Assembly: GCA_964503265.1 (NCBI GenBank) | Contig: CAZCYO010000005.1 | Span: 39,151-103,150, forward strand | From: an uncultured Gammaproteobacteria bacterium | Lineage (GTDB): Bacteria > Patescibacteriota > Microgenomatia > Levybacterales > UBA12049 | Reading direction: 5' to 3' | Length of the DNA stretch: 64,000 bases | Shown: positions 23,869 through 53,939 of the stretch, piece after piece | Layout of the letters: each line of letters opens with the position of its first letter | How positions within the stretch are numbered: the first letter of the stretch is position 1 | Position numbers and translations under genes: made by a program | Notes under the pieces: model-generated | Database searches by the model: none | What the model saw: the letters and a program-made list of their open reading frames with translations, nothing else | Told to the model about the DNA's origin: nothing

Positions 23869-24507
23869 TTATTCTCCGGCAGGTGCAGCGTTTGTTGAAA
23901 TATCTTCTCCATATGTTGATATATATCGTTCTATCGTCATAGGTGTGTATTTATGGAATTCATAGATTTCATCAGTGTTAGGATTTCCGATAAAGGTAAA
24001 GCCTTGTGACGCATAGATGTATGTCTGTGCGTACCAGCCATAAAACGTAGAACCGCGAATTGTTCTCTCAGGTTTTCCAAACTGATTCATATAATCCGTA
24101 ATCGTTGCATATCCCTCGTCGGATGCATATTCTGGCGTGAGAACACGCTCAAAGATAACAACATTTTGACTATTAGTTATTAGTTGATCTGATCTGGCTG
24201 CAACAAGTGAAGAAAACGTATATACGGTGGAACCATTATCAAGCACTTTTTTTTCTTGAATGAGATCATATATTTCATCTGGTTCTTTCGTAAGTTTTTT
24301 CCCAGTCTCTGCGATTTGCAAAGGAGAAATAAAGGTGCTTGAAACTGGTCTTTGTGATTGAACGGTAGTTGGAATAGGAATAAAAGTAGGGGCAGATTGT
24401 TTAGAAGATGGAAAAAACGAAAATAAGAATAATGAAAAAAAGAATATCAGCAAAAACCCTGCGATAACAAAAAGTCTGTATTTAATAAGTAGTAACATGA
24501 TACTCAT
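23869..24507 (-). CDS. membrane-anchored hypothetical protein (first gene of the T4SS-like locus)
   Basis: 212 aa; N-terminal TM (LFVIAGFLLIFFFSLFLFSFF), the rest predicted extracytoplasmic; no recognised domain. Confidence 0.4.
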   Translation of the reverse strand: MSIMLLLIKYRLFVIAGFLLIFFFSLFLFSFFPSSKQSAPTFIPIPTTVQSQRPVSSTFISPLQIAETGKKLTKEPDEIYDLIQEKKVLDNGSTVYTFSSLVAARSDQLITNSQNVVIFERVLTPEYASDEGYATITDYMNQFGKPERTIRGSTFYGWYAQTYIYASQGFTFIGNPNTDEIYEFHKYTPMTIERYISTYGEDISTNAAPAGE

Positions 24508-24511
24508 ATGG

Positions 24512-25927
24512 TTAATTTAGTATAGATTTAGCGATTTCAAAATGAAAAGGTTTTAATACAGGAGTACTAAAAAATGGATTAGGAGGAGCTGCTGGAGCTT
24601 TCCCATCACAACTAGTTGTTGAAATACCAGCGTCAGGATTTAAATAGTATGCTACCATATCTGCGAAGTCTTCATCCTCATTCTTAGAACCCTCAATACA
24701 CGAACTTGCATTCGAACCATAGTAACTTACTCCTCCTTCCGACTGTCCAGCGATGATCGTATCATTCCAACGAATTTTCTCTCTATCATTACACATACGA
24801 ATGACGTGTCCAAGTTCATGAGTGAATATATATTTGAAAAATGCTTCCCCATACGGATATGCAATTAAACGAACTGATTCGTCCCCACCGTTTATATTCT
24901 TTTTGCCAGGACACCCAACTTGCGAAGAAGTCTCTCCACTGACTTTTTTAACGATTGCTCCTTTGACAAGTGAAGAGAAGTTAGTCCCTTTAATATCCCA
25001 CAGTTTCTCCCAAATCCATTTCATATAGTCAGAATTATTATCAAAGCCTTCGATGGTAATTCCAAATTGTTCTTTTATCGCACTGGCAAGATCAGTTGGA
25101 TAATTTGGTGGCTTCTGTCCGCGAGGACTTCCATCTCCTGTTTTCCCTCCACAATTAGGTGGGAGGACAGGTGATACGGAAGGATTTCCGACTTTCGTTA
25201 TGACACAAGGACTTTGTCCATCACTAGAACCATTTGCACTAATAGATGGTTTAGAAGAAGTATCTACATTTTTCGCAACATCGATAAGAAATTCTTTAAA
25301 AAAACCAACTCCCGGATCTGATCTGTTTGTGGGATTGAGTTGGTAATGACCAAATACCCCATCGCCTGATACCGGGTTATATTCATCAAATTTACTCGTC
25401 CAATCGTAAGAGAGTCCACTTACAGGAATATCATACTGTTTCATGAGTTGATTCACCAGCGTGACAGCAGCTGTATACTGGACTGGTGGAACAGATACTT
25501 TGTCGTGGAAGACACCGTTATATGTCATTTCAATTGAAATTGCTTCTTGGTTATAGCCTGCCACGGCGTATGCAACTTCTGTCGTTTTATCAAGGAGCTC
25601 AACTGTCTGAAGCATCTTCCCATCAGCACCGATGATAAAATGAGCATCTACACCTCGTCCCTCAGAGCCTGAAGCAAAGTAATTATATGTATCAAGAGCA
25701 TTCATACTTGAAGCAGTTGTATGCATCACTACTTTTCTGGGTATAACGCAGTCTCCTGGTCTTCCGTAATCCTCACCAAGAGGCACAAAGAGTTTTTGGA
25801 CATTCGGAAATGAAATAGGTGTTCCAGGACATGTGGTTGGCTGGTTTGCAGCCAACACAGGTGGAGATATTAGAAGTAGAAAGAAAATTAGATTAATAAG
25901 TAAGATTGCATATTTCATAATTAACAC
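24512..25927 (-). CDS. secreted two-domain cell-wall hydrolase: N-acetylmuramoyl-L-alanine amidase (Amidase_2/PGRP) + HExxH zinc metallopeptidase
   Basis: 471 aa; signal peptide; Amidase_2 motifs (VVMHTTASS...AHFIIGADG...AYAVAGYNQEAISIEMTY); a C-terminal HELGH motif (IFTHELGHVIRMCN). Confidence 0.7.
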   Translation of the reverse strand: MLIMKYAILLINLIFFLLLISPPVLAANQPTTCPGTPISFPNVQKLFVPLGEDYGRPGDCVIPRKVVMHTTASSMNALDTYNYFASGSEGRGVDAHFIIGADGKMLQTVELLDKTTEVAYAVAGYNQEAISIEMTYNGVFHDKVSVPPVQYTAAVTLVNQLMKQYDIPVSGLSYDWTSKFDEYNPVSGDGVFGHYQLNPTNRSDPGVGFFKEFLIDVAKNVDTSSKPSISANGSSDGQSPCVITKVGNPSVSPVLPPNCGGKTGDGSPRGQKPPNYPTDLASAIKEQFGITIEGFDNNSDYMKWIWEKLWDIKGTNFSSLVKGAIVKKVSGETSSQVGCPGKKNINGGDESVRLIAYPYGEAFFKYIFTHELGHVIRMCNDREKIRWNDTIIAGQSEGGVSYYGSNASSCIEGSKNEDEDFADMVAYYLNPDAGISTTSCDGKAPAAPPNPFFSTPVLKPFHFEIAKSILN

Positions 25928-26454
25928 CCTTTAGGCAATGCAGAGAATGTTTTCCCTTGTGCTTTTAGTTGTGTTAGAAGATCGTAGGAAGGGAAGTAGG
26001 AGATGGGAAGTGAGCAAATTGCTGACACACTTATTCCTTGATCGATAAACCAATTGAATGAAGCGTCTCGTGCAGTGTTCTCATCTTCTTTGATTTCAAC
26101 CTGAAATACATCAGGGGTTTTTAAATAAGAGATTGTATACGAGTCAGTCGATTGTAACACGCCCGATTCTCCTTGAAGACGAGCGACGAGGGCTGCTCGC
26201 TTTATCGCATCTTGTTCTGTCAAAGATGGTCTGTCAGTGATTTTATTGAGTAGTTTATCTGCACTTGATTCTCTTACTGTTGATTGGTCACTTGGTTGCT
26301 GTGTGTTTTGTCTGTTTTCTTGAACTGAGGTTATCGTTGGTGTCACTGATTGTATCGGAGAGGTTGGGCGACTGATAAAAAAGAGGACCATAATGCTAAT
26401 ATAAAATAGTATTAGTATTCCAGCGCCAATATAGAACAGTGTTACTCTACTCAT
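25921..26454 (-). CDS. membrane-anchored hypothetical protein
   Basis: 177 aa; N-terminal TM (LFYIGAGILILFYISIMVLFFI); Q/S/T-rich linker; no recognised domain. Confidence 0.4.
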   Translation of the reverse strand: MSRVTLFYIGAGILILFYISIMVLFFISRPTSPIQSVTPTITSVQENRQNTQQPSDQSTVRESSADKLLNKITDRPSLTEQDAIKRAALVARLQGESGVLQSTDSYTISYLKTPDVFQVEIKEDENTARDASFNWFIDQGISVSAICSLPISYFPSYDLLTQLKAQGKTFSALPKGC

Positions 26455-26481
26455 ACTACTAGTATAAATTGTTTTAGCAGT

Positions 26482-29400
26482 CTATTGCCAGAACGACTTC
26501 GCACACTCCCAATAGTGGAAACTAAGATTTATGGATTGTAATGAATTATTATAATTAATCGCATTTGTCACCTGGTTCCCCCACGCGACATCACCATGAT
26601 CATATTCTCCATTTTTCCCTTGCCCCATTTGGAATAGTCCCCAAGCCCCACCGGAATCTGGAGTCCCGACAGCAATAGGATCAGCCCACGCATTAGGATT
26701 ATAGCCACTCTCACAGGAGATAATAGTAAAGAACCATTTATCTGCATTTGCTGCATCTTTTTGTTTTAATAATGCATAGAGATTATCTCTCTCTTTCACC
26801 TCATCAAGTGTACATGAAGGATCTCCGAAGTTCTTATTCAAAGGATTTTTACTAATTGCACCTGCATATGTTCCATTACAATTATTTTCATTTGCTGCTT
26901 CATTCTCAGTTGACGGGATAGTCGTCTGTGTCGAAGTCGTTGCCTCGACTCCTACTGCCTGTGCAGTCGCTTGGTTAATGATATAGGTATCTTTAATTTC
27001 TTGGTTTGCTTTGACGACAAGTGTATATATTTGAGGTGTGAATGTTCTCGCAGATGATTGACTACCTGCTGTATAGGTTGTCGCTAACGTCTGCATCTTA
27101 TTTGAGAAGCTTTGCATATTTGAGACATAATATGGGCCCCAGCCCTCCATTGTCCCTCTCCAGTTGTCATTTGCTGAGATGTCTTTTGCTACTTCTTGTG
27201 CGATTGCAACCGCCCCAATTTCAGGGTCCATCAGAAGAATTGCGAGAGCTTGCTGGGCCTGTATATCTCCAGCCGTTGCTTTCGTCACAAGAGACGTAAC
27301 TGTTTCAGCTGGGAATGTCGCGGGATTTTTTATTTTGCCTCCTTTTACAGCCGTTGAGTTTTCAATCACGTTGTTTCCTACTTCCTGTACTTTTTCAGGA
27401 GAATCAGTTTTATAAACTTCCACAAAGTCTGCCGCAAGATGATTTGCTGCTTGAGCGACTTGATTCCCATATCCGACCTGCCATCCTCCAGAAGTAAACC
27501 CTCCACTACATCCTTCATTTATCGTTCCGGGTTTATCTAAGCAGTTCCATGAATACGGATTTCCTCCTGTTCCTTCGATCGCACCTGCCCAAATAACAGA
27601 GACAAAAGGATCGACGTATTTCTTGTCACTATTTTTTACTTTTGCTTGCAGGTACGATTGGTGTGCTGCGACAAATCCCCCAAGTGTGTTAAGACGAGAA
27701 ATTGCGTCTTCGGAAAAGGATTCTTGTGATTGTGTGGGTGAAGGAAGTAAATAGGGAGGTTTTGTGTATGTGTCAACGACAACTGCCGGTGTCTCTGCGT
27801 TTTCTAATCCAGACGCGCCTACGTTGTTTGTCGTCCAGACAATTTTTTTTATAGAACCTGCTTGTTTTACTGGGTCGGTAATAATAGTATTTGTATTATC
27901 GTATGCGATAAACGTTCCTGATGCGCTTGCAAACGTTGTTCCGTCGGGAACGTACTCAGTAGTCTCAAGAGATCGAGCTTTTCCTGCGTACGAGGTTGAA
28001 ATCGTATAGGTGAGTAGCTTTTCCTCATCAGTTAATTCGGATGGATTTTTAATCTCAGCTTTATTAACCGTTTTGCTAACGATAACGGGAATTGTCTCAG
28101 TTAGTTCAGAATTCTCCTGTGCTGTTTGTCCTGCCATGCCAAGTAACATAAAGATAAAGATGATTAGCAGAATAATGATGATAACGACTACTAATACAGG
28201 CACCCAGTACTCAGATGTTGCCGCAAGTCCTTTCTGGACAAGTTGTTTTGCCCCTTCTTTTATGGCTTGTTTTGTCTCTTTTTTCAATGCATTTCCAACC
28301 GCATTCCCGATTTTCTTCGCACCTTTTTGTGCGAGGTCTCTCGCTTTTTTCTTCCCACGGGAGAACGGACCATCAGTGTTATTGTTAGAAGACTGACTAT
28401 TAGTTGTTTGCTGGGCTCCTGGTTGATTTCCTGCATCCTGTCTCTCATCGCGAGTATGACTTCTCGCAATATCTCTTTCCTCCGCTTCTTCCCGTTCTTC
28501 CCGCGGTGCGTAGTGGGGAATCGAAAGCGGGGGAATGAGTGGTGGTAGTTCTGGCACATCTTGATCCTCTTCTTCGATTCTCTCTACTTCAATTTCCTGG
28601 ATTGCCTGTTGTATTGAACTATCTTGTTGCGCATATACCTCTGCTTTTTCAGGAAACTGCTCCACAAACTGCCGAGTATATACAGCACGTCCAATAGCAC
28701 CAACCTGCGCTTCTCCTAATTGCGAGACTGCATCTGAGTAATATGAAGGGGTTGGTGTTGTTAATTTTGCATATGCTTCCTGAAGCGACGTATATGATGC
28801 TTCCCACATTGGATCTTCTCGTTTATCTTGATGTATTTCTTTTCGCTCTTTCTGATAGTACTCCTGGAGAGCCCCCGTATGATATGCAAAGAAACGCTCA
28901 CGCGCGCTATTACTAGTAGCCGTAGTATGTGAATCGCCAAGCTCTCCACGAGGAGTGGTTTGTTCGAGATTTCTATCTTGAGCGATTTGGGTAAATCGTG
29001 GATCATGCGGTAGGTATTTCCTCTCAAGTGCTCGGCGATAGTTTACAGGATTCTCTTTAAAAAATCTGCGAATGATTTTTTCTGCTGCTGCTTTTTTTTC
29101 ACGTTCACGTATTTGTTCGGGTGTGTCTTCAGGTTGTAAAGCCTTGTTTTTCCTTAGTATATCTTCTGCTGCATCGACCGCTTTTTTTTCATCGCCTGGT
29201 TTTATAGGCGATGTCGCGTGTGCTCCTCCATGTCCACCTGTTGGGTGAGATGTCGTATGTTCTTTCTCTTCAGTTCGCATGTATGCGAGAGCATCATAGC
29301 CACCCAGTTCATCAAAATCATTTTTAAATTGAAGTAACTTGTCAGAAACGGATGCTCGCACATCAGGTTCAAGTCGTTGTTTCCATGTTACCCATGACGA

Positions 29401-29505
29401 ATAATCTTTTACATCGTTTTCTGAGGGATGGTATTGTCTGAGGAATGCTTCCCATTGCGAGGCTCGCTGTTTCTTAAGCGGATCGATGCGAGTATTTGTA
29501 GCCAT
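26482..29505 (-). CDS. VirB1-like large bitopic cell-wall hydrolase (cytoplasmic N-domain, one TM, extracellular domain with a C-terminal SLT lytic-transglycosylase-like motif)
   Basis: 1007 aa; TM VPVLVVVIIIILLIIFIFMLLGMAG; C-terminal ISCESGYNPNAWADPIAVGTPDSGGAWGLFQM matches the SLT catalytic E-S...GLxQ signature. Comparable to PrgK/TcpG/TraG-type hydrolases of Gram-positive T4SS. Confidence 0.6.
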   Translation of the reverse strand: MATNTRIDPLKKQRASQWEAFLRQYHPSENDVKDYSSWVTWKQRLEPDVRASVSDKLLQFKNDFDELGGYDALAYMRTEEKEHTTSHPTGGHGGAHATSPIKPGDEKKAVDAAEDILRKNKALQPEDTPEQIREREKKAAAEKIIRRFFKENPVNYRRALERKYLPHDPRFTQIAQDRNLEQTTPRGELGDSHTTATSNSARERFFAYHTGALQEYYQKERKEIHQDKREDPMWEASYTSLQEAYAKLTTPTPSYYSDAVSQLGEAQVGAIGRAVYTRQFVEQFPEKAEVYAQQDSSIQQAIQEIEVERIEEEDQDVPELPPLIPPLSIPHYAPREEREEAEERDIARSHTRDERQDAGNQPGAQQTTNSQSSNNNTDGPFSRGKKKARDLAQKGAKKIGNAVGNALKKETKQAIKEGAKQLVQKGLAATSEYWVPVLVVVIIIILLIIFIFMLLGMAGQTAQENSELTETIPVIVSKTVNKAEIKNPSELTDEEKLLTYTISTSYAGKARSLETTEYVPDGTTFASASGTFIAYDNTNTIITDPVKQAGSIKKIVWTTNNVGASGLENAETPAVVVDTYTKPPYLLPSPTQSQESFSEDAISRLNTLGGFVAAHQSYLQAKVKNSDKKYVDPFVSVIWAGAIEGTGGNPYSWNCLDKPGTINEGCSGGFTSGGWQVGYGNQVAQAANHLAADFVEVYKTDSPEKVQEVGNNVIENSTAVKGGKIKNPATFPAETVTSLVTKATAGDIQAQQALAILLMDPEIGAVAIAQEVAKDISANDNWRGTMEGWGPYYVSNMQSFSNKMQTLATTYTAGSQSSARTFTPQIYTLVVKANQEIKDTYIINQATAQAVGVEATTSTQTTIPSTENEAANENNCNGTYAGAISKNPLNKNFGDPSCTLDEVKERDNLYALLKQKDAANADKWFFTIISCESGYNPNAWADPIAVGTPDSGGAWGLFQMGQGKNGEYDHGDVAWGNQVTNAINYNNSLQSINLSFHYWECAKSFWQ

Positions 29506-29540
29506 ATACTAATCGTAGCAAGTTTCGTTTCATTTGACGA

Positions 29541-31940
29541 CTAAGATTGCTGGGGAGTCGTCGGTGGGAGTGGATTTGTCACAGGAATTGTTCCCGTTTG
29601 AGGCTGTGGTGTCGGAGTCATAGTCATAGTTGTTGTTGGTATTTGTGTTGGTTGCACGGTTGGCGTTTGTTGTGGCGCTGTAGGTGTCATAACAGGAGGA
29701 GCACTCGGTTCCTCAACGGTAACCATAATTGGTGCCGTTGGTGCCGTTGGTGCCGTTGGTGCTGCTGTCGGTAGTGGCATAACAGGGGTAACAACTGGAA
29801 CTGGTTGTGGCGTGACTTGCGATAACGGAGGAAGTGGCTGTGCTCCAGGAACAGGGCCGCTATTTAGTGAGGATTGTGTCGGCTGAAATTCTGTCGGTTG
29901 GGTCGGCATAGAGACAGGAGGAGGTGCCTGTTGTATGACTGGTGGTTGTTCGCTTAAAGTAGGTGTTGGCATAACAACTGGCGGTGGTGTTTGCTCAATC
30001 GGTACTGGTGGTGTCTCTGGAACTTGCTCAACAGGCTCAGGGAGTGGTTGTTCAAGTGGTGTATCAAGCGCTGTCTGATCGTCAAGTGTCTGTTGTGCAA
30101 GCTGTTGCTGTTTCATGACCTCCTCTGGATTTGAAGTAATAAGATCGTGCTCAAATGGTGCGCCAAGTACTTTCATCGCGACGTGATTTTGTCCGGCGAA
30201 AAATAATCCTTCTCCGATATCTGCAGTTAATAATAACTCTTTTTCACCTTCAGATAGATAGAAAATTTCTGTCGCCAAATCGACTTCGGCAGTACCTTGT
30301 TTAAGGAGAATCTGAATAGACGAGTTGGTAAGAACTGCTTTACCGTATTCTGTTTTCAAGAAGTCCTCTACGTCTTGTGTGGCGGTTGTTAATCCCAGAT
30401 AGTATTTTCGCGCACGCTTTGCGATTGAATAGACGAATGAGGCTGAATCTTCGTATTTCATCATATACCACGCTTCATCTAAGATCAGGAGTCTTTTTTT
30501 AAGTGATTTTTTAACTTTTGTCCACACGAAATCCAGAATAATATGCATCGCAATTGGACGCAGTTCATCTTCTAGGTTTTTAATATCAAAGATCGTCAGT
30601 GGATTTGTCAGATCAAAATTAGATTTCTGGTTAAAAATACCTGCAGCAGATCCTTTAATGAATTTCTCAAGTCGAAACGCCATCTCTCTTGCATTCGCAT
30701 CCTCATAGCCCATGAGTGTTTTGTATAAATCTTCCATAATTGGTGCTTCTTTGTTCTGGGTAGATGGATCAGGTGTAATGCCTTTTTGACCGTATGTTTC
30801 AATAAGTGCTTTATCTAAAAGCGCGTCATGTTCTGCATCGAGTGTTCCAAGCACGATCTTAAGGAGCCCGTGAAGAGAAAGAATCTTGAGGCCAAGCTCA
30901 TTTTCTCCTGCTTCAAACAGGTTTGCCAAATCAAACGGATTAATTTTAACGGGAGCATTATTTGAGAATTCGACGACTTCACCACCAAGTGTTTGAGTAA
31001 GTGTTCCGTATTCTCCCTCGGGATCTACGACGATTACTTCTGTTCCAAGCATGAATTGCCGCATAATCTCAAGTTTGATCAAATACGATTTCCCTGATCC
31101 TGATTTTCCTAGAACCATCTCGTTCGCATTTTCAAGTGAGAACCTGTCGAAGATAATGAGGGAACCGTTTTGCTGGTTCATCCCATACATGATGCCTTTG
31201 TTCTGTGTAAGCATAGCGCTCGTAAAAGGGAAAGTTGATGCAAGTGATGTCGTATCCATGTTACGAGTGATAAATAGTCGATCACTTGCTATTGGAAGTG
31301 TGGATTTAAATCCTTCTTCCATTTGAAGCGTTGCTGGTTTCGCTGAGAGGAGAAGAGACGCCAGGGTTGTTTGTAGCTGTTTTGATGCTGAGAGCAGATC
31401 TCCAAGCGAATCGCTTGTAATGGTTAGATAAAAAGAAAATTGGAAGAATCTCTCTATGCCTTTTGCTAGTTCTTCCTGAAGTCCAAGTGCATCTTCAAGT
31501 GCTGCTTCAATTTTCGGGTCAACTGGTTTTCCGTTCTCAGCATCTGACGCAATTGTCGCTTCCATTTCCCCGATTTTTCGTCGTAAGTCATTTAATACAT
31601 CATTTGAAGACGTTGGGTAAATAAACATGGAAATATCAATGGTGTGATCGTAATCGACGACTGGTTGTAGCCAACTTGGAGAGACATAACGTGGGTATCC
31701 GACGACAAAGAGGGTGGAGTAATACTTTTCCCCGACACGTACATATTTGAAATCAACTTCAACAGAAGATGGAGAGATAAGATCAACCATCGACACCGTT
31801 CCCTTTTCTAGATTTTGAAGTGCTTTAGATGTAGGTGATGGTGGTGGCGTTTTCCCTTTTGCTGCTGGTTGAGGTGCTTGTGCACCAGCTTGTGTCTGGA
31901 CGGGTGGTTGCGCCACCTTTTTATTTCCAAAAAGTCCCAT
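29541..31940 (-). CDS. VirB4/TraC/CagE-family T4SS ATPase (ATPase body, with a Pro/Thr/Gln-rich ~190-aa C-terminal tail)
   Basis: 799 aa; Walker A GKSGSGKS and Walker B LLILDEAW. The region after the Pro-rich N-terminus (VDFKYVRVGEKYYSTLFVVGYPRYVSPSWL) matches the VirB4 central domain. Confidence 0.85.
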   Translation of the reverse strand: MGLFGNKKVAQPPVQTQAGAQAPQPAAKGKTPPPSPTSKALQNLEKGTVSMVDLISPSSVEVDFKYVRVGEKYYSTLFVVGYPRYVSPSWLQPVVDYDHTIDISMFIYPTSSNDVLNDLRRKIGEMEATIASDAENGKPVDPKIEAALEDALGLQEELAKGIERFFQFSFYLTITSDSLGDLLSASKQLQTTLASLLLSAKPATLQMEEGFKSTLPIASDRLFITRNMDTTSLASTFPFTSAMLTQNKGIMYGMNQQNGSLIIFDRFSLENANEMVLGKSGSGKSYLIKLEIMRQFMLGTEVIVVDPEGEYGTLTQTLGGEVVEFSNNAPVKINPFDLANLFEAGENELGLKILSLHGLLKIVLGTLDAEHDALLDKALIETYGQKGITPDPSTQNKEAPIMEDLYKTLMGYEDANAREMAFRLEKFIKGSAAGIFNQKSNFDLTNPLTIFDIKNLEDELRPIAMHIILDFVWTKVKKSLKKRLLILDEAWYMMKYEDSASFVYSIAKRARKYYLGLTTATQDVEDFLKTEYGKAVLTNSSIQILLKQGTAEVDLATEIFYLSEGEKELLLTADIGEGLFFAGQNHVAMKVLGAPFEHDLITSNPEEVMKQQQLAQQTLDDQTALDTPLEQPLPEPVEQVPETPPVPIEQTPPPVVMPTPTLSEQPPVIQQAPPPVSMPTQPTEFQPTQSSLNSGPVPGAQPLPPLSQVTPQPVPVVTPVMPLPTAAPTAPTAPTAPIMVTVEEPSAPPVMTPTAPQQTPTVQPTQIPTTTMTMTPTPQPQTGTIPVTNPLPPTTPQQS

Positions 31941-32605: not shown

Positions 32606-32607
32606 AG

Positions 32608-33864
32608 TTAGCTAAACAGTGCTTTTCTTAATTCTTCTCGTTCGTCATGGGACGTAATATCAAGCGGGTGAAGGATGTCTCCATTCACTATTACTTCAAT
32701 TGTATCAAAGCGCGCGATACTTTTGGGATCCTCAAGCGTTAATGTATAAACTCCGTTAGGGAGTGCTGTTGCTGATGCAAATTGTCCGAGTTCATTTGTT
32801 TTAAATGCCCGAACCGGAGTGCCTTCTTTATCGGTTAATTCAACTAAAATATTTGAGAGAATATTCCCTCGTGGATCGTGGACCACTCCAAGAAGGACGT
32901 TTGGTGTGTCTGAAGGGGTTAATATCCCTCGACTTTTTGCTTCGGCCGGTGTCATAAGTTTTTTTACATGAGGCTCGTAAGCTAAGTCTACAGGCGTTTC
33001 ATTTGGAGCAGGTGGTTTTAATTCCTCGACTGTATACGTGCTCGTCAGTTGTGGGGCAGCTGCCGATGTTTCTGCTTGGTGCATTTTTTGTAGTTCTTGC
33101 TCGAGCTGCTCTTTTTGTTTGAGAAGCGCTTGCAGTTGATGTTCAAGTGACATTGTATGATCATGCGCAGCTTGAGTCTGTGCAGCCTGTGCATGCATTT
33201 CTTCATCTTTTGCCTTATTAAGTTCTGCCTGCATCTTCGTCACTGTATCGATAATTTCTTTGTCTTTTTCTTCAAGTGATGTTGGTGCAGTGGATTGTGT
33301 TGTTATTTGGGGAATGATAATTCCGCCATCAATTGCCACAGGAGGAGTGGTTGGGTGCTGAAGCGGTAGAGGCGCTGGGGCTTGAGGATTAAATAAATGC
33401 TGCAGGAAGGCTGATTCACGAGTATCCATGTCAGATTGCTTTTGGGTTGCTGTACTGGCGAGAAATGTCGTAAATGCTTTTTTCTTTTCTTCTTCTTGTG
33501 CCTTTTTTTCCGGTTGATGAGTCGCGTTTTGATTTACGTGAGTTGAAATGGAGAAGTCTGTAAACGCATAGTGATTACCCATCTTTTGATACACATATTG
33601 GTTCGGTGAAATAAGTGCTTTAAGGAGTTGTGTAACCATAACATCAAGTGGGCGTCCGTCAATTGGTAAGAATGCAAGGGCTGCACCACTTCCGGCAAAT
33701 AGCGGGATGAAGATAAGTTTTAGTAAGAGAAAGACAGGAGCATAGTAAAGAATAATTGCACTTACACAGCCGGTCGCGAGATAGGCAAATTGCTTCACTG
33801 TCATGTTTCCGATGAGTTTAAATTGAAATCCGGTGACGTCTTGTGGGATAGGATGGTTTTCCAT
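32608..33864 (-). CDS. VirB3-like (PrgI/TcpE-family) membrane protein fused to a coiled coil and a C-terminal carboxypeptidase-regulatory-like beta-sandwich domain
   Basis: 418 aa; N-terminus FQFKLIGNMTVKQFAYLATGCVSAIILYYAPVFLLL with two TM segments (VirB3/PrgI-like); central Q/E-rich coiled coil; C-terminus LLGVVHDPRGNILSNILVELTDKEGTPVRAFKTNELGQFA (CarboxypepD_reg-like). Confidence 0.5.
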   Translation of the reverse strand: MENHPIPQDVTGFQFKLIGNMTVKQFAYLATGCVSAIILYYAPVFLLLKLIFIPLFAGSGAALAFLPIDGRPLDVMVTQLLKALISPNQYVYQKMGNHYAFTDFSISTHVNQNATHQPEKKAQEEEKKKAFTTFLASTATQKQSDMDTRESAFLQHLFNPQAPAPLPLQHPTTPPVAIDGGIIIPQITTQSTAPTSLEEKDKEIIDTVTKMQAELNKAKDEEMHAQAAQTQAAHDHTMSLEHQLQALLKQKEQLEQELQKMHQAETSAAAPQLTSTYTVEELKPPAPNETPVDLAYEPHVKKLMTPAEAKSRGILTPSDTPNVLLGVVHDPRGNILSNILVELTDKEGTPVRAFKTNELGQFASATALPNGVYTLTLEDPKSIARFDTIEVIVNGDILHPLDITSHDEREELRKALFS

Positions 33865-39496: not shown

Positions 39497-39511
39497 ATAA
39501 GGTTATGTAGA

Positions 39512-40096
39512 TCAATTACTCATAGAACCTGATCCATTGTGTTCGTCCTCTGATGGCGTGAAAGGAACAGGTGCTGGAGGAGGTGGTGGGACATCCTCTG
39601 GCATGGACATGTTCATATCCTGTGTTGACATAGCTGCTGGTTCACTCATGACAGGTGAAGCTGGTTGTACTTCTTCAATCGGTGCTGTGACTGGTTGTAT
39701 GGTATCTGCAGGAGCTGATACTTCTTGCTGTTGTTCATCAGCTATCATCTCGCGTCCTGCGCCTACATAAAGATCGTGAAATTCTAAGAATGCATCTTTA
39801 AAAAGATCCTGGGCCTGAGGAACCTTTTCCATGATAAATGCTTCAACCTCTTCACGAGATTTTCCCTGTTCATTCATTTGAGTGAATGCATCTAAATCTG
39901 CTTCTGGAATAGCATCAATAATCTTTGCTGTTAAGAAGTAATCTAGTCGAGCATAGAGCTGGACCAACATTTCTTCTTTTTGGGTATCGTCAACTGCTTC
40001 CATGTGTACTTCTTCGAGTAATGATTCTAAAAATGCACGCGTTTCTGGTGGAATTTGATCCTGTTCGTTTGATTGTGGATTGTTTTGATCGTTCAT
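39512..40096 (-). CDS. acidic hypothetical protein with a Pro-rich C-terminus
   Basis: 194 aa; D/E-rich (EQDQIPPETRAFLESLLEEVHMEAVDD); a PPPPAP tract; directly upstream of the giant gene. Confidence 0.4.
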   Translation of the reverse strand: MNDQNNPQSNEQDQIPPETRAFLESLLEEVHMEAVDDTQKEEMLVQLYARLDYFLTAKIIDAIPEADLDAFTQMNEQGKSREEVEAFIMEKVPQAQDLFKDAFLEFHDLYVGAGREMIADEQQQEVSAPADTIQPVTAPIEEVQPASPVMSEPAAMSTQDMNMSMPEDVPPPPPAPVPFTPSEDEHNGSGSMSN

Positions 40097-40308
40097 AACC
40101 TCACCTCCCCTCAGTAAAAAATCTAATATCGAATCACGAAGTTCGAAAACTACATATTATTTACGTTGAACTTGTTATAAAATTTCAAAGATATTTTCGT
40201 ATTTCGAGATTTGTGCTTCGATTTTTTTATTTTTGGATATATTCAGTATTCCAGAAAGCGAAATATGATGTCAATAGAGGTGGGTATAGAACATGCACAT
40301 TAGAGATC

Positions 40309-42063: not shown

Positions 42064-42067
42064 TGTA
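42012..42067. repeat. simple-sequence repeat: 8-bp unit GCAATGAA x6 perfect + 1 degenerate copy
   Basis: Seen directly (agcaatgaagcaatgaag...caatgtaac). It lies in the divergent region between gene 40309-42063 (-) and gene 42084-42773 (+). Confidence 0.9.
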
Positions 42068-42083: not shown

Positions 42084-42773
42084 TTGTATACTATTTCTAT
42101 GCTCTTTGTGGGATTATTCTTTCTTTTTCTTATTCTCTTATTTATCTCATCATATTTACTTACTCAATCTCTTTCAACTCTTTTTTATCGGATCACGAGA
42201 AGTGAGAGATGGACTATTACTATTCTGGCCCTTCTTTTTTTTCCAGGTGTGCTCATTCACGAGTTGGCACACTTCTTAATGGCAACGATATTATTTGTTC
42301 CGACAGGGGAGATAGAGTTTATCCCACAGATTATGGAAGACAGGGTGAAATTAGGGAGTGTTCAGATCGGGCAGACAGATCCATTCAGACGGGCGATTAT
42401 CGGGATTGCACCAGTTATCGTTGGGGCGAGTGTATTAATTGGGGTATTATATTACTTTACAACTTCGACCTTCGCATTTACTACACCACTAGATATTCTT
42501 AAAGTACTAGGGATACTCTATATAGTGTTTGAAATTAGTAATACGATGTTTTCGAGTAAGCGTGATGTTGAAGGTACGCTTGAACTACTTGTAGCCATAG
42601 TGGTTATCGGAGGGGTACTCTACTTTGCTGGAGTACGACTCCCTGAATCGTTTATCGAAGTGATTACTTCAGACAAAGTATTATCATTCTTTGAACAAAC
42701 AAGTAAACTTCTCATTCTCCCGCTGCTTCTTAACTATTCCTTGTGGGCAGTAAGTAAACTCCTCGGAAAATAA
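42084..42773 (+). CDS. polytopic membrane protein with an HExxH motif (putative membrane zinc metalloprotease)
   Basis: 229 aa; about 5 TM segments; LIHELAHFLMA motif at the end of TM2. Confidence 0.4.
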   Translation: MYTISMLFVGLFFLFLILLFISSYLLTQSLSTLFYRITRSERWTITILALLFFPGVLIHELAHFLMATILFVPTGEIEFIPQIMEDRVKLGSVQIGQTDPFRRAIIGIAPVIVGASVLIGVLYYFTTSTFAFTTPLDILKVLGILYIVFEISNTMFSSKRDVEGTLELLVAIVVIGGVLYFAGVRLPESFIEVITSDKVLSFFEQTSKLLILPLLLNYSLWAVSKLLGK

Positions 42774-42777
42774 CTCT

Positions 42778-47409: not shown

Positions 47410-47433
47410 TAAAGTCAAAAATCAAAAGGTAAA

Positions 47434-47928: not shown

Positions 47929-50900
47929 ATGAAACAAAACGAATTTTATGTGAACGAGGATCAGCTTAGATTGACAGAAAAGCAGCATCAAAGCTATGCT
48001 AGATCTATGCACGAACCTGCCCTGGACACGAAAGAAGACAAAGCATTAGATACTGCTGTCAGTAAATTTGTAGTTAGAATTCAGTCTGCTTTTAGAAGGC
48101 AGGATGATGCTGAGAAGAAAAAACAGGAAGAAGAAAAGAAAAATCTTGAGAAGAACGCGGATAAAGATACCAAACCTGATTCTCCGATTAATAAAACGCC
48201 GGTAACAAATGAGCATGATACTCTTCAAGAACCGAAAGTATCACTCCTCTCAAAACTTTTTGGTGCACTCGTATCAGGTATATCAAATGAAAAATTACTT
48301 GTAAAAGCTGAATCGTTCACGCAGTCTTACAAAACCCTTAATACCGCAAAGCCTGAAGAGTTAAAAGATCTTTTTTTATCATGGGAACCTGACACGAAAG
48401 ATCGAACAGAGATCATGCTGTCTAAAACTGCGCAGCGAATGATTTTAGAGATCGTTAAAGATAAAGGGATTAGCACTGCTATCTTCCTCCAGGCTGTCAA
48501 TAGTGGCTCAACTGTTAAAGCACAGGAAGCTGCATCTACCATACAACACACAGCTGGTGTTTCAGAACCTATGCAAAAAGCAATTCAAGACATCCTCGAT
48601 ACGATGGAGGTTCATCCGGTCGATGAATGGAAAACGGAAGACTATGCGAAACAATTCGTAAAACTACATAAAGCAGTAGAGAAGAGTAGTGATAGTGGTA
48701 CTCCACAGAGTGCTGTAGATCTTCAAGTTGCGCAAGTCGTAGAGAATTTTCTTATTGACGAAGTAACAGCAGATAATGTCTCGGAAAATTCATTTGTACA
48801 AGCAGTAACGACAGTCGTGACGAACAGTGAAGAAGCAGATGGGAATGCTTCGTTTCATGCACACCCTGAACCTATTCAAAAAAACGATGAACAGAAAGCT
48901 GTTTTAGAAGCAGAAAGAATTCTTAAAGAAAACCAGACAGCTACTCCTACTGCAGATGCAGCTGATGCCTATCTAAAAAATCAACCAGCAGCATCTCCTG
49001 AGACAATTCACACTTTTTCTAACATACCTAAAAAACTTTCTGGAGGACATAGTGTTGAGACAGCATATGCTGTATGGAAAGCCTTTAACAGAGGACAAGA
49101 GCTAAGTGAAGAACAGCGACTGCTTGCTGAACGTGGATTAATCCCTACTCTTGAAGGTGGTAGTCCTCTAACACGAGCAGATGATGGAGAACAGGTACAT
49201 AACCGCCTTCCAATGCAAGAAGTCAGGATGGGAGCATCTCCAGATACGACTACGTTCGAAGAATTTCTTGATACTCTTGACCCTGAAGCGAAAAAAAATC
49301 TTCTAGAATCGCTTGCAGAAGCAGACAAAGAAGCGGTAAAAAAACCTGAAGTACGAGCATTAGAGCGAGCAGAAAATTTAAAGGATCGTATTGATCGATG
49401 GGGGACAAGTTATGACCCCAAAAAAAGGCAAGAAGACTTAAAAAAACTGCGTGGACTTGTTCAACCAAACGGAGAGCTGACTACCAGACGTGGTAGTATT
49501 CTCAGTGCCATTAAGCGTGCGAAGTTTGATCCTGATGAGCCTCCTGTTGATGATCCAGAAGATACGACAGGAAGAAAGAAAGTCGCACGAGGGATAAGTC
49601 CAGAAAAAATTAAAAAAGAGCGTGATTATGTCCAGAAAATTTTTGAAGCAGCGCGTGCCAGTGTTAATGATGCATTATTAAGAGGAGATATCGATGCTGT
49701 GAAAATAACAGAAAAGGGGTTACTTGATCAACTCCTTATCTATGAAAAAAAGTATCCGAGTGAACGCCGGGGCAAAGGAAAAGAAGGATATGACACAGTT
49801 GAGAATATTAATGACTTGTGTGAACAAATCAGTCGAAGTGACGATAGATTCGATATCGGTGGAGACTATCAACTGATAGATGATAAAACACAGAGTGTAA
49901 ATGAGCAAAACTTCATGATTTGGATTCGAGAACAAATGGTGTATTGGCATGGACAAGATCCTGATAGTGAAGTAAAGTTCTTCTCCCAAATTGCTGTTGA
50001 TAATAACGACCTTTTTCGTCCAATTAATTTAGGATCGATGATTGCAAATAAGAGTCTGTACTTTAAAACTCGTGATAATAATACCCTTGAAGATCTGTAT
50101 AACGAAGTAACGAATCTCGCATGGTTAATTGGAGGAATTCGCAACATGGATATTTCATATCGTTTACAGATGACCCCTGAGGAAAAAAACGGAGAACTGA
50201 TGGCAAGTTTACTTGCAAATAACATGCTTACCAAAAAAAGTGCTAATGGAAAGAATACCTTAGAGGCTATTCTCACGATGGCTGGTCGTTTCTACGATAA
50301 AGCAAATCACGGCGATGCTGGCGATGATTTTATGGAAAAACATCGAGATATGGATTTGGGGGACGGAATAGCCACCGGACTTGCCATTTACTACAACATT
50401 ACCGACAAAGAAAAATTACAATCGTTAATTGGTGCTGATACGCATTTCTTTAAACGAAGTGGTTTTAAAATGGCACTGGAGAAGATGGCTGGAGTGGATA
50501 AATTAGATCTTCCTGAGGTCGCCGAAAGGAAAATGCACGCATATTTAAAAAGAGCAAAACTTCTTACGAAAGATGATGATGACGTTGATGATACATTCGA
50601 AGCATTCATGGATAAATGGTTTGGCAAAGAGGAGGACGGAGAGCTCCAGGAAAAAGGACGAACTGACTTTATGAAAATGCTCAATGTGTTTGTGCCAGAA
50701 CCACACCCACAACAAGTAGACCTAGCCAATCAATTGATTCGTCAAGCTATTACTGAGCTGTCAAATAAACATAAGGAGCCTCGGGTTAGAGGGAAACCAA
50801 ATGATTTTGCGCAAGCTGATGTGGCAGATGACGCCACAGCAAACTTCGCTCAATTAACTGCAAGTCTTATGAGCTGGTGGGGTGGTGCGGCTGCGAAAGC

Positions 50901-52212
50901 TGATACAGGAGTGGCTGCGGTAAATGGTATGTCGAAATACAAATGGGTAAGAAGCTATAAGTATAAACAGGCTGATTCTGGACGTGCCGGTCCGGTAGGT
51001 AATTTGTATGGTATGGGTACAGTTCAAGAAGTATACGTCGATGTATTTACTGGTATGTTAACGATTGGGAAGAAATCTATCATGGAAGTGGTCGAGCGGA
51101 AAATAAAAGACTTGAAAGATAAAAAATCATTTGAAGAAAAAGAAAAAACAGCACAAGAGCTTAACTTTAACCTTAATACAGCAAAACAATATGGAGCTAA
51201 TACGTCTAATGCGGCAAAGATTTATTTATCAGAAGGTGGTGCCGATATGCCACATTTCCATGATTTCATCGAGGTGAATCAGTGGGGAACAGTCAGAATC
51301 AATGCAGATAAAATGGCCGAGGCATTTCAAGATAAAATTATTAAACCTGCTCGTTATAACTGGAGAACCAACCCCATGCCATTTCATAAAGATGTCAGAA
51401 AATTACTCGATGATCCTAAACTACCTAAAAAGATTAAGCTTAAAGATGGAAGAGAAATACCGGTTCGAGACACCTATATGACTGTCACTCAGCTGGAAAA
51501 TACTTTTAGTAGACAAGCGATTAGTAATATTCAAAAGATTTTCCAGCATGATATGCATCATAAATTTAATATGGATAAAGATGATAAGAAGTCTGTTGAT
51601 TATTTTACTGCTAATGCACATGCAAAGTTTTTTGACGAAAAAGCTGGGCGAGTGTATCGATTTAAAGTGAACGAAAAAGGAGACTATGTCGATAAAAAGG
51701 GAAAAGCGATTCATATGCCACATCATGAGGGCGGACATCATCAAAGTGAAGTAGACTGGCTATTAAAACGTGGTGTTGTTGATTGGGATACGAATAAGAC
51801 AACTGTGGGTCTTGAAAGTAAATTACCTAAAGAAATAGCTGACTTAATGGATAATAGTATTTTTCGAAGTATTGTGGTGAGAAGTTATTTGGTAACACGA
51901 TTTGGAGGATTGTTATACGGAAATTCTGTCAGAAACAGTCCATATAAGTTCTTAGATATTTTATCTCGTGAACATGCAGTTGAAGGACTTGAAAGTATCC
52001 CGACGAACGCTGTCGCAGATGAAGATGATCTGCATGCGAATAATATGCATGGACACTATTTTTCTCACTTTGATATCCAACTTATTCGAAAATTATCAAA
52101 TAATCAGCGTTGGAAGAATTATAGTAAAGCAGTAGGCGAGTCGTTTAGTTCAGGAACATTTGAGGGACTGAAAGAACTTTGGAGCTTCTTCTGGAAAAAC
52201 GCATTTAGTTAA
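47929..52212 (+). CDS. giant hypothetical protein (1427 aa), soluble, K/E/D-rich; candidate secreted substrate/effector or structural protein of the T4SS-like locus
   Basis: Uninterrupted 4.3-kb ORF with no TM segments or nucleotide-binding motifs. It lies between the regulator/4HB genes and the VirB6-like gene (its 3' end overlaps by 4 nt). Confidence 0.5.
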   Translation: MKQNEFYVNEDQLRLTEKQHQSYARSMHEPALDTKEDKALDTAVSKFVVRIQSAFRRQDDAEKKKQEEEKKNLEKNADKDTKPDSPINKTPVTNEHDTLQEPKVSLLSKLFGALVSGISNEKLLVKAESFTQSYKTLNTAKPEELKDLFLSWEPDTKDRTEIMLSKTAQRMILEIVKDKGISTAIFLQAVNSGSTVKAQEAASTIQHTAGVSEPMQKAIQDILDTMEVHPVDEWKTEDYAKQFVKLHKAVEKSSDSGTPQSAVDLQVAQVVENFLIDEVTADNVSENSFVQAVTTVVTNSEEADGNASFHAHPEPIQKNDEQKAVLEAERILKENQTATPTADAADAYLKNQPAASPETIHTFSNIPKKLSGGHSVETAYAVWKAFNRGQELSEEQRLLAERGLIPTLEGGSPLTRADDGEQVHNRLPMQEVRMGASPDTTTFEEFLDTLDPEAKKNLLESLAEADKEAVKKPEVRALERAENLKDRIDRWGTSYDPKKRQEDLKKLRGLVQPNGELTTRRGSILSAIKRAKFDPDEPPVDDPEDTTGRKKVARGISPEKIKKERDYVQKIFEAARASVNDALLRGDIDAVKITEKGLLDQLLIYEKKYPSERRGKGKEGYDTVENINDLCEQISRSDDRFDIGGDYQLIDDKTQSVNEQNFMIWIREQMVYWHGQDPDSEVKFFSQIAVDNNDLFRPINLGSMIANKSLYFKTRDNNTLEDLYNEVTNLAWLIGGIRNMDISYRLQMTPEEKNGELMASLLANNMLTKKSANGKNTLEAILTMAGRFYDKANHGDAGDDFMEKHRDMDLGDGIATGLAIYYNITDKEKLQSLIGADTHFFKRSGFKMALEKMAGVDKLDLPEVAERKMHAYLKRAKLLTKDDDDVDDTFEAFMDKWFGKEEDGELQEKGRTDFMKMLNVFVPEPHPQQVDLANQLIRQAITELSNKHKEPRVRGKPNDFAQADVADDATANFAQLTASLMSWWGGAAAKADTGVAAVNGMSKYKWVRSYKYKQADSGRAGPVGNLYGMGTVQEVYVDVFTGMLTIGKKSIMEVVERKIKDLKDKKSFEEKEKTAQELNFNLNTAKQYGANTSNAAKIYLSEGGADMPHFHDFIEVNQWGTVRINADKMAEAFQDKIIKPARYNWRTNPMPFHKDVRKLLDDPKLPKKIKLKDGREIPVRDTYMTVTQLENTFSRQAISNIQKIFQHDMHHKFNMDKDDKKSVDYFTANAHAKFFDEKAGRVYRFKVNEKGDYVDKKGKAIHMPHHEGGHHQSEVDWLLKRGVVDWDTNKTTVGLESKLPKEIADLMDNSIFRSIVVRSYLVTRFGGLLYGNSVRNSPYKFLDILSREHAVEGLESIPTNAVADEDDLHANNMHGHYFSHFDIQLIRKLSNNQRWKNYSKAVGESFSSGTFEGLKELWSFFWKNAFS

Positions 52213-53939
52213 TCAGAAGGTAGCTCTTGTCTGGCAGTGACTTGACCTGTTGTCGTTTGTACTGGAGTAGATGGTCGATCTCTTCGTACACCACCTGTTA
52301 GGATACGTATGCCACTTGATACTTTGCCCCATGTTCCTTTTGCTGCATTTGCTCCGGTTCCTGTTAGGAATTGTCCAGCTGCATATTTATATGAACCATC
52401 AGATTTCTTCTCAAATGTTTTCTTACCTATCCATTTAGGAATCATCGTCGTACCAGCAGCGCCTTTCTGGAATCCACCAAGGATAGCTGGAGCGATGTAT
52501 TTATTTGGACTGGACTTGAGTGCTTCTCGAACCATCGTTAACATGTCTGGGAGGATGAGGAGGAAAGAAAATCCGATGATGTAGCCTAGTCCGCTAACAC
52601 CTGTCGCTGGGGTGCCGATAAGTGGGGGATTAAAGCTGAGTGTTTTATCGTTTCCAGATGTCATGAGAATACGTCCAGCGAGCATCACTGCGACACAGAC
52701 AGGATAGATCATGAGATTTGAGATAAGTCCTCTGATCCACGGGCTAAAGCCAAATGTGCTTTCAGGGAAAATGCCTGCAAATAAATAGAGTGGACCAAGT
52801 GCGGTATAGATAATGACGTAGGCAAAGGAGCGAAGTAACATAAACCAAATACGAAACAAGGTAATCATAATCGCGATGATGACGACGAGAGTGACGAATA
52901 CATCGACGACCCATTTGAGTACTGAATTAAACATCCCAGCAGCACAGTTGCCGATATTTCCACCATCATCTCCTGCTTGCCACGGGCCTATTTTAAATCC
53001 GCATGGACTGTTATTTGGAAAAATTGTAAGCGATCCTGCAACGTCTCCAAATGTCTCAGCAACACGACGTGAAATTGCGACTGGGCCAGCAGCGACATCA
53101 CCAGGAGTGTTTAGCGAATATTCATCTTTTAAGTTGTCCGTGATTGCACCATAAAATCCGTAGGGACTTTTGATGAGGTTCTGGATAACTTTTCCATTAT
53201 CTATTTGTCCTGCATCTTCGACAGATTCAAACAGATTAATCGCCAGATATGTCGTCGCCCACATCGCATCGACTAAAATGCCGACAATCGCATAAGAAAA
53301 AGTGATGAGGAGCATTGTTATGACAATTTTAGGAAGCTGGTTTTGAATCGTCATTACTGTTCGGGGATCGATTTTGACTCGCAGCATGATCGCAAGTCCG
53401 ATAATGACAAAGGCAATTACAAATCCCATATATGCAATATCTCGAAATATTCTCCAGAAACGAAGCATATAATCGAGCTGTTCAAATCCAGTACTTTGGG
53501 CATATGTTGATGTCACAACGCCGAAGTTATTTGCCATATATGAGACATAATTTCCTGTATGAATTGGCATGGCGTACATATCACCCATAGAGGAGGTAAG
53601 TGCTCCGATTAGTCCACCTGGTTGATTGGTCTGCGAGGGCGTAGCATAGCCTATTTTATTTGTCTCACGATTAATTGTTAGACATGGCTTTTGTGTTATC
53701 ACATCAGTACCGGATAATTGACAGATCATCGAAGCGAGTACTTCGATCATCATGGACTGGACAAATGTATGCTGATTTTGGGGAACATTCGCGTCGGTAT
53801 TAGGTGTCACATATTGGTTATATCCTTGTGCATGGGACGTGGGGACAATAGCTAAGACTGAACCAGATATAAGAACGAGAAAAAGAAAAAAAGAAAAAAT
53901 TTTTGAAGGAGAAAACTTCACCAAGGCAGGCAGATGCAT
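52209..53939 (-). CDS. VirB6/TrbL-like polytopic membrane protein
   Basis: 576 aa; signal peptide, ~130-aa extracytoplasmic N-domain, then at least 6 TM segments and a hydrophilic C-terminus. The topology and its position in a T4SS-like locus fit VirB6/TrbL. Confidence 0.5.
   Translation of the reverse strand: MHLPALVKFSPSKIFSFFLFLVLISGSVLAIVPTSHAQGYNQYVTPNTDANVPQNQHTFVQSMMIEVLASMICQLSGTDVITQKPCLTINRETNKIGYATPSQTNQPGGLIGALTSSMGDMYAMPIHTGNYVSYMANNFGVVTSTYAQSTGFEQLDYMLRFWRIFRDIAYMGFVIAFVIIGLAIMLRVKIDPRTVMTIQNQLPKIVITMLLITFSYAIVGILVDAMWATTYLAINLFESVEDAGQIDNGKVIQNLIKSPYGFYGAITDNLKDEYSLNTPGDVAAGPVAISRRVAETFGDVAGSLTIFPNNSPCGFKIGPWQAGDDGGNIGNCAAGMFNSVLKWVVDVFVTLVVIIAIMITLFRIWFMLLRSFAYVIIYTALGPLYLFAGIFPESTFGFSPWIRGLISNLMIYPVCVAVMLAGRILMTSGNDKTLSFNPPLIGTPATGVSGLGYIIGFSFLLILPDMLTMVREALKSSPNKYIAPAILGGFQKGAAGTTMIPKWIGKKTFEKKSDGSYKYAAGQFLTGTGANAAKGTWGKVSSGIRILTGGVRRDRPSTPVQTTTGQVTARQELPSD

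Follow-up and report, generated by a model that had tools for sequence, protein, structure and literature searches.

What does a type IV secretion system (T4SS) do when it lies beside the replication origin of a bacterium and has neither a relaxase nor a coupling-protein gene at its side? The question is raised by a 64-kb stretch of contig CAZCYO010000005.1 (hereafter the window), of which positions 23869-53939 are taken up by a T4SS gene cluster (Table 1). A first reading of the letters alone (the sequence-only reading) had described a contiguous T4SS-like locus next to oriC, and its gene list and coordinates hold in the map of open reading frames (ORFs) and in Pfam and NCBIfam searches. We propose with considerable confidence that the cluster encodes a native Patescibacteria-type T4SS of Levybacteria (class Microgenomatia), which stems from the conjugation machinery of monoderm bacteria, mating-pair formation (MPF) class FATA, and has been repurposed. 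That the system is of the Patescibacteria type is close to certain, that it has a non-conjugative role in the interaction with a host is likely, and each single model of its cargo is at best tentative, the sequence being compatible with export and with import alike.

The Pfam and NCBIfam searches were run on the window genes, and precomputed Pfam results were also used for the contigs. Related loci, 78 in number and mostly from Levybacteria, came from a scan taking one genome per species, and their gene order was read by tblastn and family hidden Markov models (HMMs). The only extension of the reading beyond the window was 1.4 kb past its right end.

VirB4 and its partners

The VirB4 ATPase shows the lineage of the system. 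The protein scores 378 bits against NF045971, the profile of the CD1110-family VirB4 (curated cutoff 325), and falls far under the cutoffs of the VirB4/TraC profiles of MPF-T and MPF-F (112.8 bits against TIGR00929 of MPF-T, cutoff 643). More than 7,900 strong homologs were found, the best 120 of which share 63-84% identity and are named Levybacteria or Patescibacteria where they are named. Profile scores and homolog identity together place VirB4, as far as sequence can tell, in the MPF-FATA lineage, with patescibacterial proteins as its nearest relatives. The sequence-only reading had likened the locus to the T4SSs of Candidate Phyla Radiation (CPR) and Gram-positive bacteria rather than to proteobacterial VirB systems, and this likeness is supported.

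Only from position 176 onward does VirB4 match its profile, and the N-terminal domain that it lacks is encoded by a separate upstream gene, that of a 221-aa TrsD-like protein, which matches positions 98-233 of NF045975, the VirB4 profile of the Mycoplasma integrated conjugative element (ICE), at 2.7e-8 and the TrsD profile NF041427 at 0.0016, below cutoff. Its stop codon overlaps the start codon of virB4, and the two genes are neighbors in 76 of 79 loci. The VirB3-like protein, named together with VirB4 in the sequence-only reading, proved to be a PrgI homolog (33.8 bits, gathering threshold 27, 5.1e-8), the gene of which adjoins virB4 in 75 of the 79. In this protein a long linker leads to a CarboxypepD_reg-like beta-sandwich (6.8e-6); the same fusion occurs in the distant relative L084.

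The present VirB4 is 799 aa long, whereas most of its relatives have 620-700 aa. It ends in a low-complexity tail of about 190 extra amino acids (29541-30110), rich in Pro, Thr, Gln and Ala and absent from the relatives, in which a 9-nt tandem repeat, TTGGTGCCG, runs 3.8 times at 29729-29762.

Pilins, VirB6-like protein and wall hydrolases

The HMM searches upheld not only VirB4 but also the assignment of five VirB2-like pilin paralogs, four of which exceed the gathering threshold of PF18895, the fifth (25.4 against 26.6) being a clear paralog. Each consists of a leader, a first transmembrane (TM) helix, a loop with the motif SGGDxxK and a second TM helix; the paralogs are 28-33% identical in the alignment, and their paralogy is seen also in the DNA. 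In the 461-aa pilin a 370-aa N-terminal extracellular domain is fused to the pilin domain. Arrays of 3-6 pilins were found in 55-56 loci. The pilins also match, weakly and below cutoff (E 3e-6 to 2e-3), the NCBIfam profile NF045849 of the Mycoplasma ICE ("Mbov_0395 pilin-like"), a hint that FATA-type systems of monoderms may not lack VirB2-like proteins altogether. Next to the array lies the gene of a 229-aa polytopic membrane protein, homologs of which adjoin pilin arrays in L053, L062, L063 and L066; the protein may be an intramembrane metalloprotease that processes the pilins, its match to Pfam M50 having an E value of only 1.

For the 576-aa protein at the right end of the cluster a structure model was used, since a profile search of its family against PDB gave no match. 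Model and gene order indicate a divergent, syntenic VirB6/DotA-like protein, and in this form the VirB6-like protein of the sequence-only reading stands. Its gene is convergent with that of the 1427-aa protein, the two overlapping by 4 nt.

A VirB1-like hydrolase with a soluble lytic transglycosylase (SLT) domain had also been claimed. The function was retained and the fold was not: the C-terminal domain of the 1007-aa protein is better called lysozyme-like, because Pfam SLT is matched only at E 0.037 while a profile of 21 family sequences matches C-type lysozymes in PDB at 2.9e-5 (single-sequence PDB searches of the 1007-aa and the 576-aa protein gave no match). The protein has a charged, cytoplasmic N-terminal half, a TM region at about 426-465, an ectodomain and the muramidase-like domain at about 870-1006. 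The catalytic Glu aligns with that of lysozyme and is invariant, an equivalent of Asp52 is missing, and the domain is present in 28 loci. We predict that the protein is a functional analogue of VirB1 and do not assign it demonstrably to SLT. The second wall hydrolase, of 471 aa, was correctly described as Amidase_2 plus HExxH; Amidase_2 is an N-acetylmuramoyl-L-alanine amidase domain, and the C-terminal half of the protein is kept in about 10 loci.

Two bitopic proteins are encoded in the same part of the cluster. The 212-aa family has 1-2 paralogs per locus (36 HMM matches in 28 loci) and the 177-aa family 1-3 (38 matches in 30 loci). The 212-aa protein has no Pfam match, and profile searches of both families against PDB were empty. 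In about 30 loci the two families, with ectodomains of 140-180 aa, occupy the stretch from the lysozyme gene to dnaN, a place in which one might look for VirB8-like proteins; the 212-aa protein is a candidate for a VirB8-like or assembly factor.

A native locus beside dnaN

Is the cluster a resident of this chromosome or a visitor? The 30-kb T4SS block begins 1 nt past dnaN, and across the related loci the order is conserved: yidC, rnpA, dnaA, dnaN, 1-5 genes for wall hydrolases or bitopic proteins, virB4, trsD, prgI, a variable slot, 3-6 pilin genes, the regulator gene, the gene of the 1427-aa protein (g1427) and virB6. In all 52 loci that contain dnaN, this gene is convergent with virB4 and lies 1.3-6.6 kb away, downstream of virB4, and the transcription of the core operon is always head-on to replication. 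The distant relative L084 has the same gene set squeezed into 13.8 kb.

Composition points the same way. The locus resembles its flanks in GC content at third codon positions (0.318 against 0.326) and in codon usage, with a pooled distance in relative synonymous codon usage of 0.28. GC content is higher at 26-40 kb because the proteins encoded there are rich in Ala, Pro, Gly and Thr. From the conserved gene order and the codon usage like that of the flanks it follows that the T4SS locus is, as judged from these genomes, a native, vertically inherited core feature and not an island; the two checks that the sequence-only reading had proposed, of synteny and of composition, both come out on the side of a native locus.

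Missing conjugation genes

The sequence-only reading had found no relaxase and no VirD4-type ATPase in the window and no second Walker A protein in the locus, and this remains so. Pfam and NCBIfam searches together with the precomputed Pfam results revealed no relaxase (MOB), VirD4/TcpA-type coupling protein (T4CP) or integrase domain in any window gene, and the 1.4 kb past the right end encode only a surface protein and none of the three. VirB4 holds the only canonical Walker A of the locus, the P-loop of the regulator being degenerate; the CD1115 and TraD profiles match nothing but the P-loop of VirB4 itself, at E > 0.006. Scans of the window for tRNAs and Rfam families were empty, and apart from the pilin paralogs it has no long direct repeats or att-like flanking repeats. 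Pfam found no domains of the VirB7/VirB9/VirB10 outer-membrane core among the locus genes. Since no relaxase, coupling ATPase or integrase accompanies the locus, we regard non-conjugative transport as probable, a reading that the conserved synteny and native codon usage support as well.

Comparison with known systems

In 2023 Wang et al. (PMC10633639) reported that in Southlakia epibionticum ML1 a gene cluster, SEML1_0006-0019, is essential for epibiotic growth, as found by transposon insertion sequencing (Tn-seq). The cluster contains virB4, a trsD-like gene, prgI, a VirB6-like gene and six pilin genes, with a peptidase and a lysozyme gene downstream of virB4; it has no recognizable relaxase or T4CP, and protein export or another non-conjugative role was proposed. 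With the locus described here it shares peptidase, lysozyme homolog, VirB4, TrsD-like protein, PrgI with a large protein encoded behind it, the VirB6-like protein and PF18895 pilins, and likewise the lack of a recognizable relaxase or T4CP within the cluster; the low locus tags suggest that in ML1, too, it is near the start of the genome. There are also differences. ML1 belongs to the Saccharimonadia and the present organism to the Microgenomatia (Levybacteria); here the pilin genes lie between prgI and virB6 and are accompanied by an OmpR-type regulator and the 1427-aa family; and for the NTF2-like (VirB8-like) SEML1_0012 no counterpart was detected in our locus. The requirement for epibiotic growth was established by Tn-seq in ML1 only, whereas the role of the present locus is read from its genes.

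In 2025 Quinonero-Coronel et al. (PMC12102498) surveyed 3,035 genomes of Patescibacteria and found that their VirB4 clade nests in MPF-FATA, that TrsD, PrgI and VirB6 are present, and that pilin arrays comprise 2-11 genes, Microgenomatia being especially rich in them. Relaxases were seldom seen; VirD4-like genes occur in 2,918 of the 3,035 genomes, mostly far from virB4; and in Microgenomatia and Paceibacteria the cluster is near dnaA, dnaN, rnpA and rpmH. The present locus agrees with this description in its FATA-derived VirB4, TrsD, PrgI, pilin array, neighborhood of dnaA, dnaN and rnpA and lack of a nearby relaxase or T4CP. However, VirB6 was called "scarce" in Microgenomatia and VirB3 said seldom to adjoin virB4 there, whereas in the Levybacteria set PrgI is beside virB4 in the 75 of 79 loci already mentioned, and synteny extends to a divergent VirB6 family. 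It is this 576-aa family that fills the gap of the "missing VirB6" noted for Microgenomatia. In the main text and supplementary text of that survey, as far as they were available, no mention was found of the regulator, the 1427-aa family or the variable slot.

With the Gram-positive MPF-FATA systems (CD1110 of CTn2, Prg of pCF10, Trs of pGO1) the locus has in common the VirB4 family, TrsD, PrgI, a TM-anchored wall hydrolase and the monoderm architecture without VirB7, VirB9 and VirB10, and its pilins weakly resemble the Mbov_0395 pilin-like family of the Mycoplasma ICE. It differs from them in having no relaxase, no T4CP (PcfC/CD1115-like) and no adhesin (PrgB), in its array of VirB2-like pilins and in its fixed chromosomal site, which is not that of a mobile element. 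The Ptl system of Bordetella, VirB of Brucella and ComB of Helicobacter pylori likewise are non-conjugative and have no VirD4 encoded in the locus; Ptl and Brucella VirB are precedents for export and ComB is one for DNA import. All three, however, are diderm MPF-T systems with a VirB7/VirB9/VirB10 core, nothing of which is found here.

No T4SS before that of Patescibacteria had been shown to be one on which the growth of its bearer depends, and its function is still called unknown (PMC11665869, PMC12857230). In reviews of late 2024 and 2025 the ideas are that the system delivers effectors, exchanges signals or serves for uptake from the host, and our literature search found no later resolution. 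Almost all of the ultra-small Patescibacteria have this chromosomal cluster beside the origin of replication. That an origin-proximal, relaxase-less chromosomal T4SS has been repurposed from conjugation is already published (PMC10633639, PMC12102498), and the present locus adds a further member from Levybacteria. As the reviews call the function completely unknown, any well-annotated member helps.

The regulator and the 1427-aa protein

Between the pilin genes and virB6 lie two genes that the sequence-only reading had listed as a dedicated regulator and as one of two giant ORFs (1822 and 1427 aa), all of which are present. The 445-aa protein is by its sequence an OmpR-family one-component regulator: in a profile search against PDB only winged helix-turn-helix (wHTH) domains were matched (3.8e-13), a receiver domain was not found, and the N-terminal 340 aa have no PDB or Pfam match. 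The N-terminal domain contains a degenerate P-loop, GLPGVGRA (family motif G[LIV]PGxxR[ST]); nearly all of the 26 relatives examined have arginine in place of the Walker lysine. The family was found in 31 loci, with the pilin array as its neighbor each time, and could serve to find the regulon of the system.

The 1427-aa protein and its family are soluble, with neither TM helices nor a signal peptide, and they also lack a Walker A; the place of the family between regulator and VirB6 is fixed. An exhaustive HMMER search with amino acids 400-1200 gathered 195 cluster representatives at E < 1e-3, which are 800-1900 aa long; in 20 loci and on two more distant contigs the gene directly adjoins that of the regulator, with virB6 convergent behind it. 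For the core (amino acids 600-1170) a confident AlphaFold2 (AF2) model was obtained, which is helical (predicted local distance difference test, pLDDT, 88; predicted template modeling score, pTM, 0.89) and for which no solved structural relative was found. This giant cytoplasmic family, tightly linked and of no known fold, is a lead on the function of the system. It is conceivable, though we hold it rather doubtful, that g1427 is an unrecognized core cytoplasmic component of the T4SS, a receptor or platform replacing the coupling protein, or else the main conserved substrate; in that case the slot on the prgI side would be the place of cargo proteins specific to each lineage, the 1822-aa ORF among them.

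Between the two genes is that of a four-helix-bundle protein, which adjoins the regulator gene also in L005, L048 and L066. A second four-helix-bundle gene of this 23S rRNA IVP/bAvd-like kind is at 1770-2159 (minus strand). A diversity-generating retroelement was considered for the two bAvd-like genes and rejected; the window has neither a reverse transcriptase nor a template/variable repeat pair.

Proposed function and alternatives

From what VirB4, VirB3, VirB6, VirB2 and VirB1 do in other T4SSs, a mechanism can be sketched. VirB4 and TrsD would dock on PrgI and the VirB6-like protein in the single membrane; VirB4 would pull pilins from the membrane and power the building of a short pilus or conduit, for the passage of which the muramidase and the amidase/zincin would open the peptidoglycan. 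The conduit would contact the host bacterium on which the epibiont depends, and protein, or possibly other macromolecules, would be moved through it rather than DNA conjugated. The regulator would control the pilin/VirB6 side of the locus. As accessory factors or substrates we would count the cytoplasmic 1427-aa protein and the giant ORFs that vary among the loci.

Several points weigh against a non-conjugative host-interaction system. A coupling protein could act in trans, because VirD4-like genes are common elsewhere in Patescibacteria genomes (PMC12102498), and one of the large ORFs without annotation could be a very divergent relaxase. Nor did any protein of the locus prove to be VirB8-like, the 177-aa and 212-aa families being without a PDB match. 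Finally, the organism has no known host, and its interaction with one is deduced here from the genes.

What might be moved? One possibility, for which we see perhaps the best though still slender chances, is that the system is a dedicated translocator of effectors or toxins, whose secreted cargo would be the giant ORFs of the slot; in the window this would be the 1822-aa protein, paired with the small acidic DUF5663 protein. The slot, which separates prgI from the pilin genes (34028-42063 in the window, where the 555-584-aa ORF also belongs to it), is indeed hypervariable: in about 14 of 31 long loci it measures 110-330 bp, otherwise 0.7-8 kb, and the proteins of the filled slots, 600-2500 aa long and for the most part devoid of Pfam domains, fall into at least four families that are unrelated to one another. 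Among the relatives only L029 and L058 have the pair of DUF5663 protein and giant ORF, while L002 and L068 match it in part; the small acidic protein stands upstream of the giant ORF, as in chaperone-effector pairs. However, neither a secretion signal nor a toxin domain was recognized in the giant ORF, which also has no match in Pfam, NCBIfam, PHROG or PADLOC; several slot proteins of relatives bear wall-related or glycosyltransferase domains, which is not effector-like; and half of the relatives keep the machine with an empty slot. The pair with the 1822-aa ORF could be lineage-specific cargo, a substrate or a surface factor, and the slot as a whole is a further lead on the open question of function.

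Somewhat less probable is a machine for the import of DNA or nucleotides, like ComB of H. pylori or the archaeal Ced system, which would feed a genome unable to make nucleotides. A T4SS without T4CP and relaxase would suit this purpose, and VirB4 is distantly similar to CedB (NF041017, 69.9 bits, 1.8e-19). The score is, however, far under the cutoff of 700 and reflects only the shared VirB4/HerA fold (CedD: 25.5, cutoff 600), CedA-like and ComB-specific components are missing among the locus genes, and import has no experimental support in any Patescibacterium. The missing components lower the case for membership in the Ced or ComB group, not the possibility of import.

Still less likely is an adhesive pilus for attachment to the host through which nothing is translocated. 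The diversified array of five pilin genes is the most conserved accessory feature, one pilin carries the 370-aa extracellular domain, and the window has no ATPase that would recruit a substrate; but Patescibacteria already adhere by type IV pili (PMC12857230), and VirB6/DotA-like channel proteins and wall hydrolases have been retained. Very improbable is an ordinary or degenerate ICE that has recently lost its relaxase, T4CP and integrase or has them a short way beyond the ends of the window. In its favor are the VirB4 family, which was typed on conjugative transposons (CD1110), the presence of TrsD, PrgI and wall hydrolases, all parts of the kind used in conjugation, and an IS1595 zinc-ribbon fragment at 55215-55682; but the same gene order at the same site beside dnaN in 52 of 52 informative relatives, which span 59-84% VirB4 identity, the native codon usage, the lack of integrase, tRNA and att-like repeat, and the housekeeping genes on both sides, with only a surface protein in the 1.4 kb beyond the right end, speak against it.

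Other features of the window

Table 1. Genes and proteins of the T4SS cluster and its left boundary (positions in the window)
Feature	Positions	Strand	Evidence or remark
dnaA and dnaN with DnaA-box cluster	21092..23868	+	Pfam; DnaA-box scan; left boundary of T4SS locus
Bitopic protein, 212 aa: N-terminal TM helix and ectodomain of about 175 aa	23869..24507	-	sequence
Secreted wall hydrolase, 471 aa: Amidase_2 and C-terminal HELGH (zincin-like)	24512..25927	-	Pfam 4.6e-18; motif
Bitopic protein, 177 aa: TM helix and ectodomain with conserved Cys	25921..26454	-	sequence
1007-aa protein with predicted lysozyme-like domain	26482..29505	-	sequence; Pfam SLT E 0.037; family profile against PDB
VirB4 ATPase, 799 aa, Walker A GKSGSGKS	29541..31940	-	Pfam P-loop_TraG 3.3e-27; NCBIfam NF045971
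TrsD-like protein, 221 aa	31940..32605	-	NF045975; TrsD NF041427; PF26593 TraC-like (precomputed)
PrgI/VirB3-like membrane protein with C-terminal CarboxypepD_reg-like domain	32608..33864	-	Pfam
Slot occupants: DUF5663 protein (194 aa, acidic), then 1822-aa ORF with central hydrophobic segments	34028..40096	-	
ORF of about 555-584 aa, start doubtful	40309..42063	-	one weak relative, L061
Polytopic membrane protein, 229 aa, HELAH in TM region	42084..42773	+	motif; synteny
Five VirB2-like pilins: 121, 143, 137, 109 and 461 aa	42778..45997	-	Pfam PF18895
Regulator, 445 aa: 340-aa N-terminal domain and C-terminal OmpR/PhoB winged helix	46072..47409	+	Pfam Trans_reg_C 2.8e-16
Four-helix-bundle protein, 23S rRNA IVP/TIGR02436	47434..47811	+	Pfam 6.1e-22; TIGR02436 1.8e-24
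1427-aa soluble protein (g1427)	47929..52212	+	synteny; AF2 model of core
Divergent VirB6/DotA-like polytopic membrane protein (predicted), 576 aa	52209..53939	-	structure model; synteny

The sequence-only reading had also listed an "SSR". As a simple sequence repeat it exists: the octanucleotide AGCAATGA is perfectly repeated 6.9 times at 42011-42065, in the divergent spacer and 5' end of the 555-584-aa ORF. A site-specific recombinase, the other meaning of the abbreviation, was not found. The repeat separates this ORF from the gene of the HExxH membrane protein, and within it the Logan contig is interrupted. Phase variation may take place at this site, or the interruption may merely reflect how the repeat was assembled. 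Scans of the unknown proteins with PHROGs and PADLOC yielded nothing except the wHTH domain of the regulator.

By ORF map, Pfam and NCBIfam, the region to the left of 23.9 kb contains carB, carA, ruvABC, leuS, fba, pgk, yidC, rnpA, rpmH, dnaA and dnaN. Six DnaA-box-like sites at 22408-22573, revealed by a DnaA-box scan, span the end of dnaA and the dnaA-dnaN spacer, which makes this the probable oriC region; because the sites cluster there, it is reasonable to say that the T4SS locus is next to oriC. The cumulative GC skew reaches its minimum farther left, at about 12-16 kb, which is several kb away from dnaA and the DnaA-box cluster.

On the right the block is followed by more genes of housekeeping and of the envelope, with those for a 2-hydroxyacid dehydrogenase, the IS1595 zinc-ribbon fragment, a Wzy-TPR protein, PPDK and a surface protein. 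The IS1595-type transposase zinc ribbon is encoded by an isolated 155-aa ORF on the minus strand with no other domain; no other trace of a mobile element occurs in the window, and this one is not part of the T4SS block.

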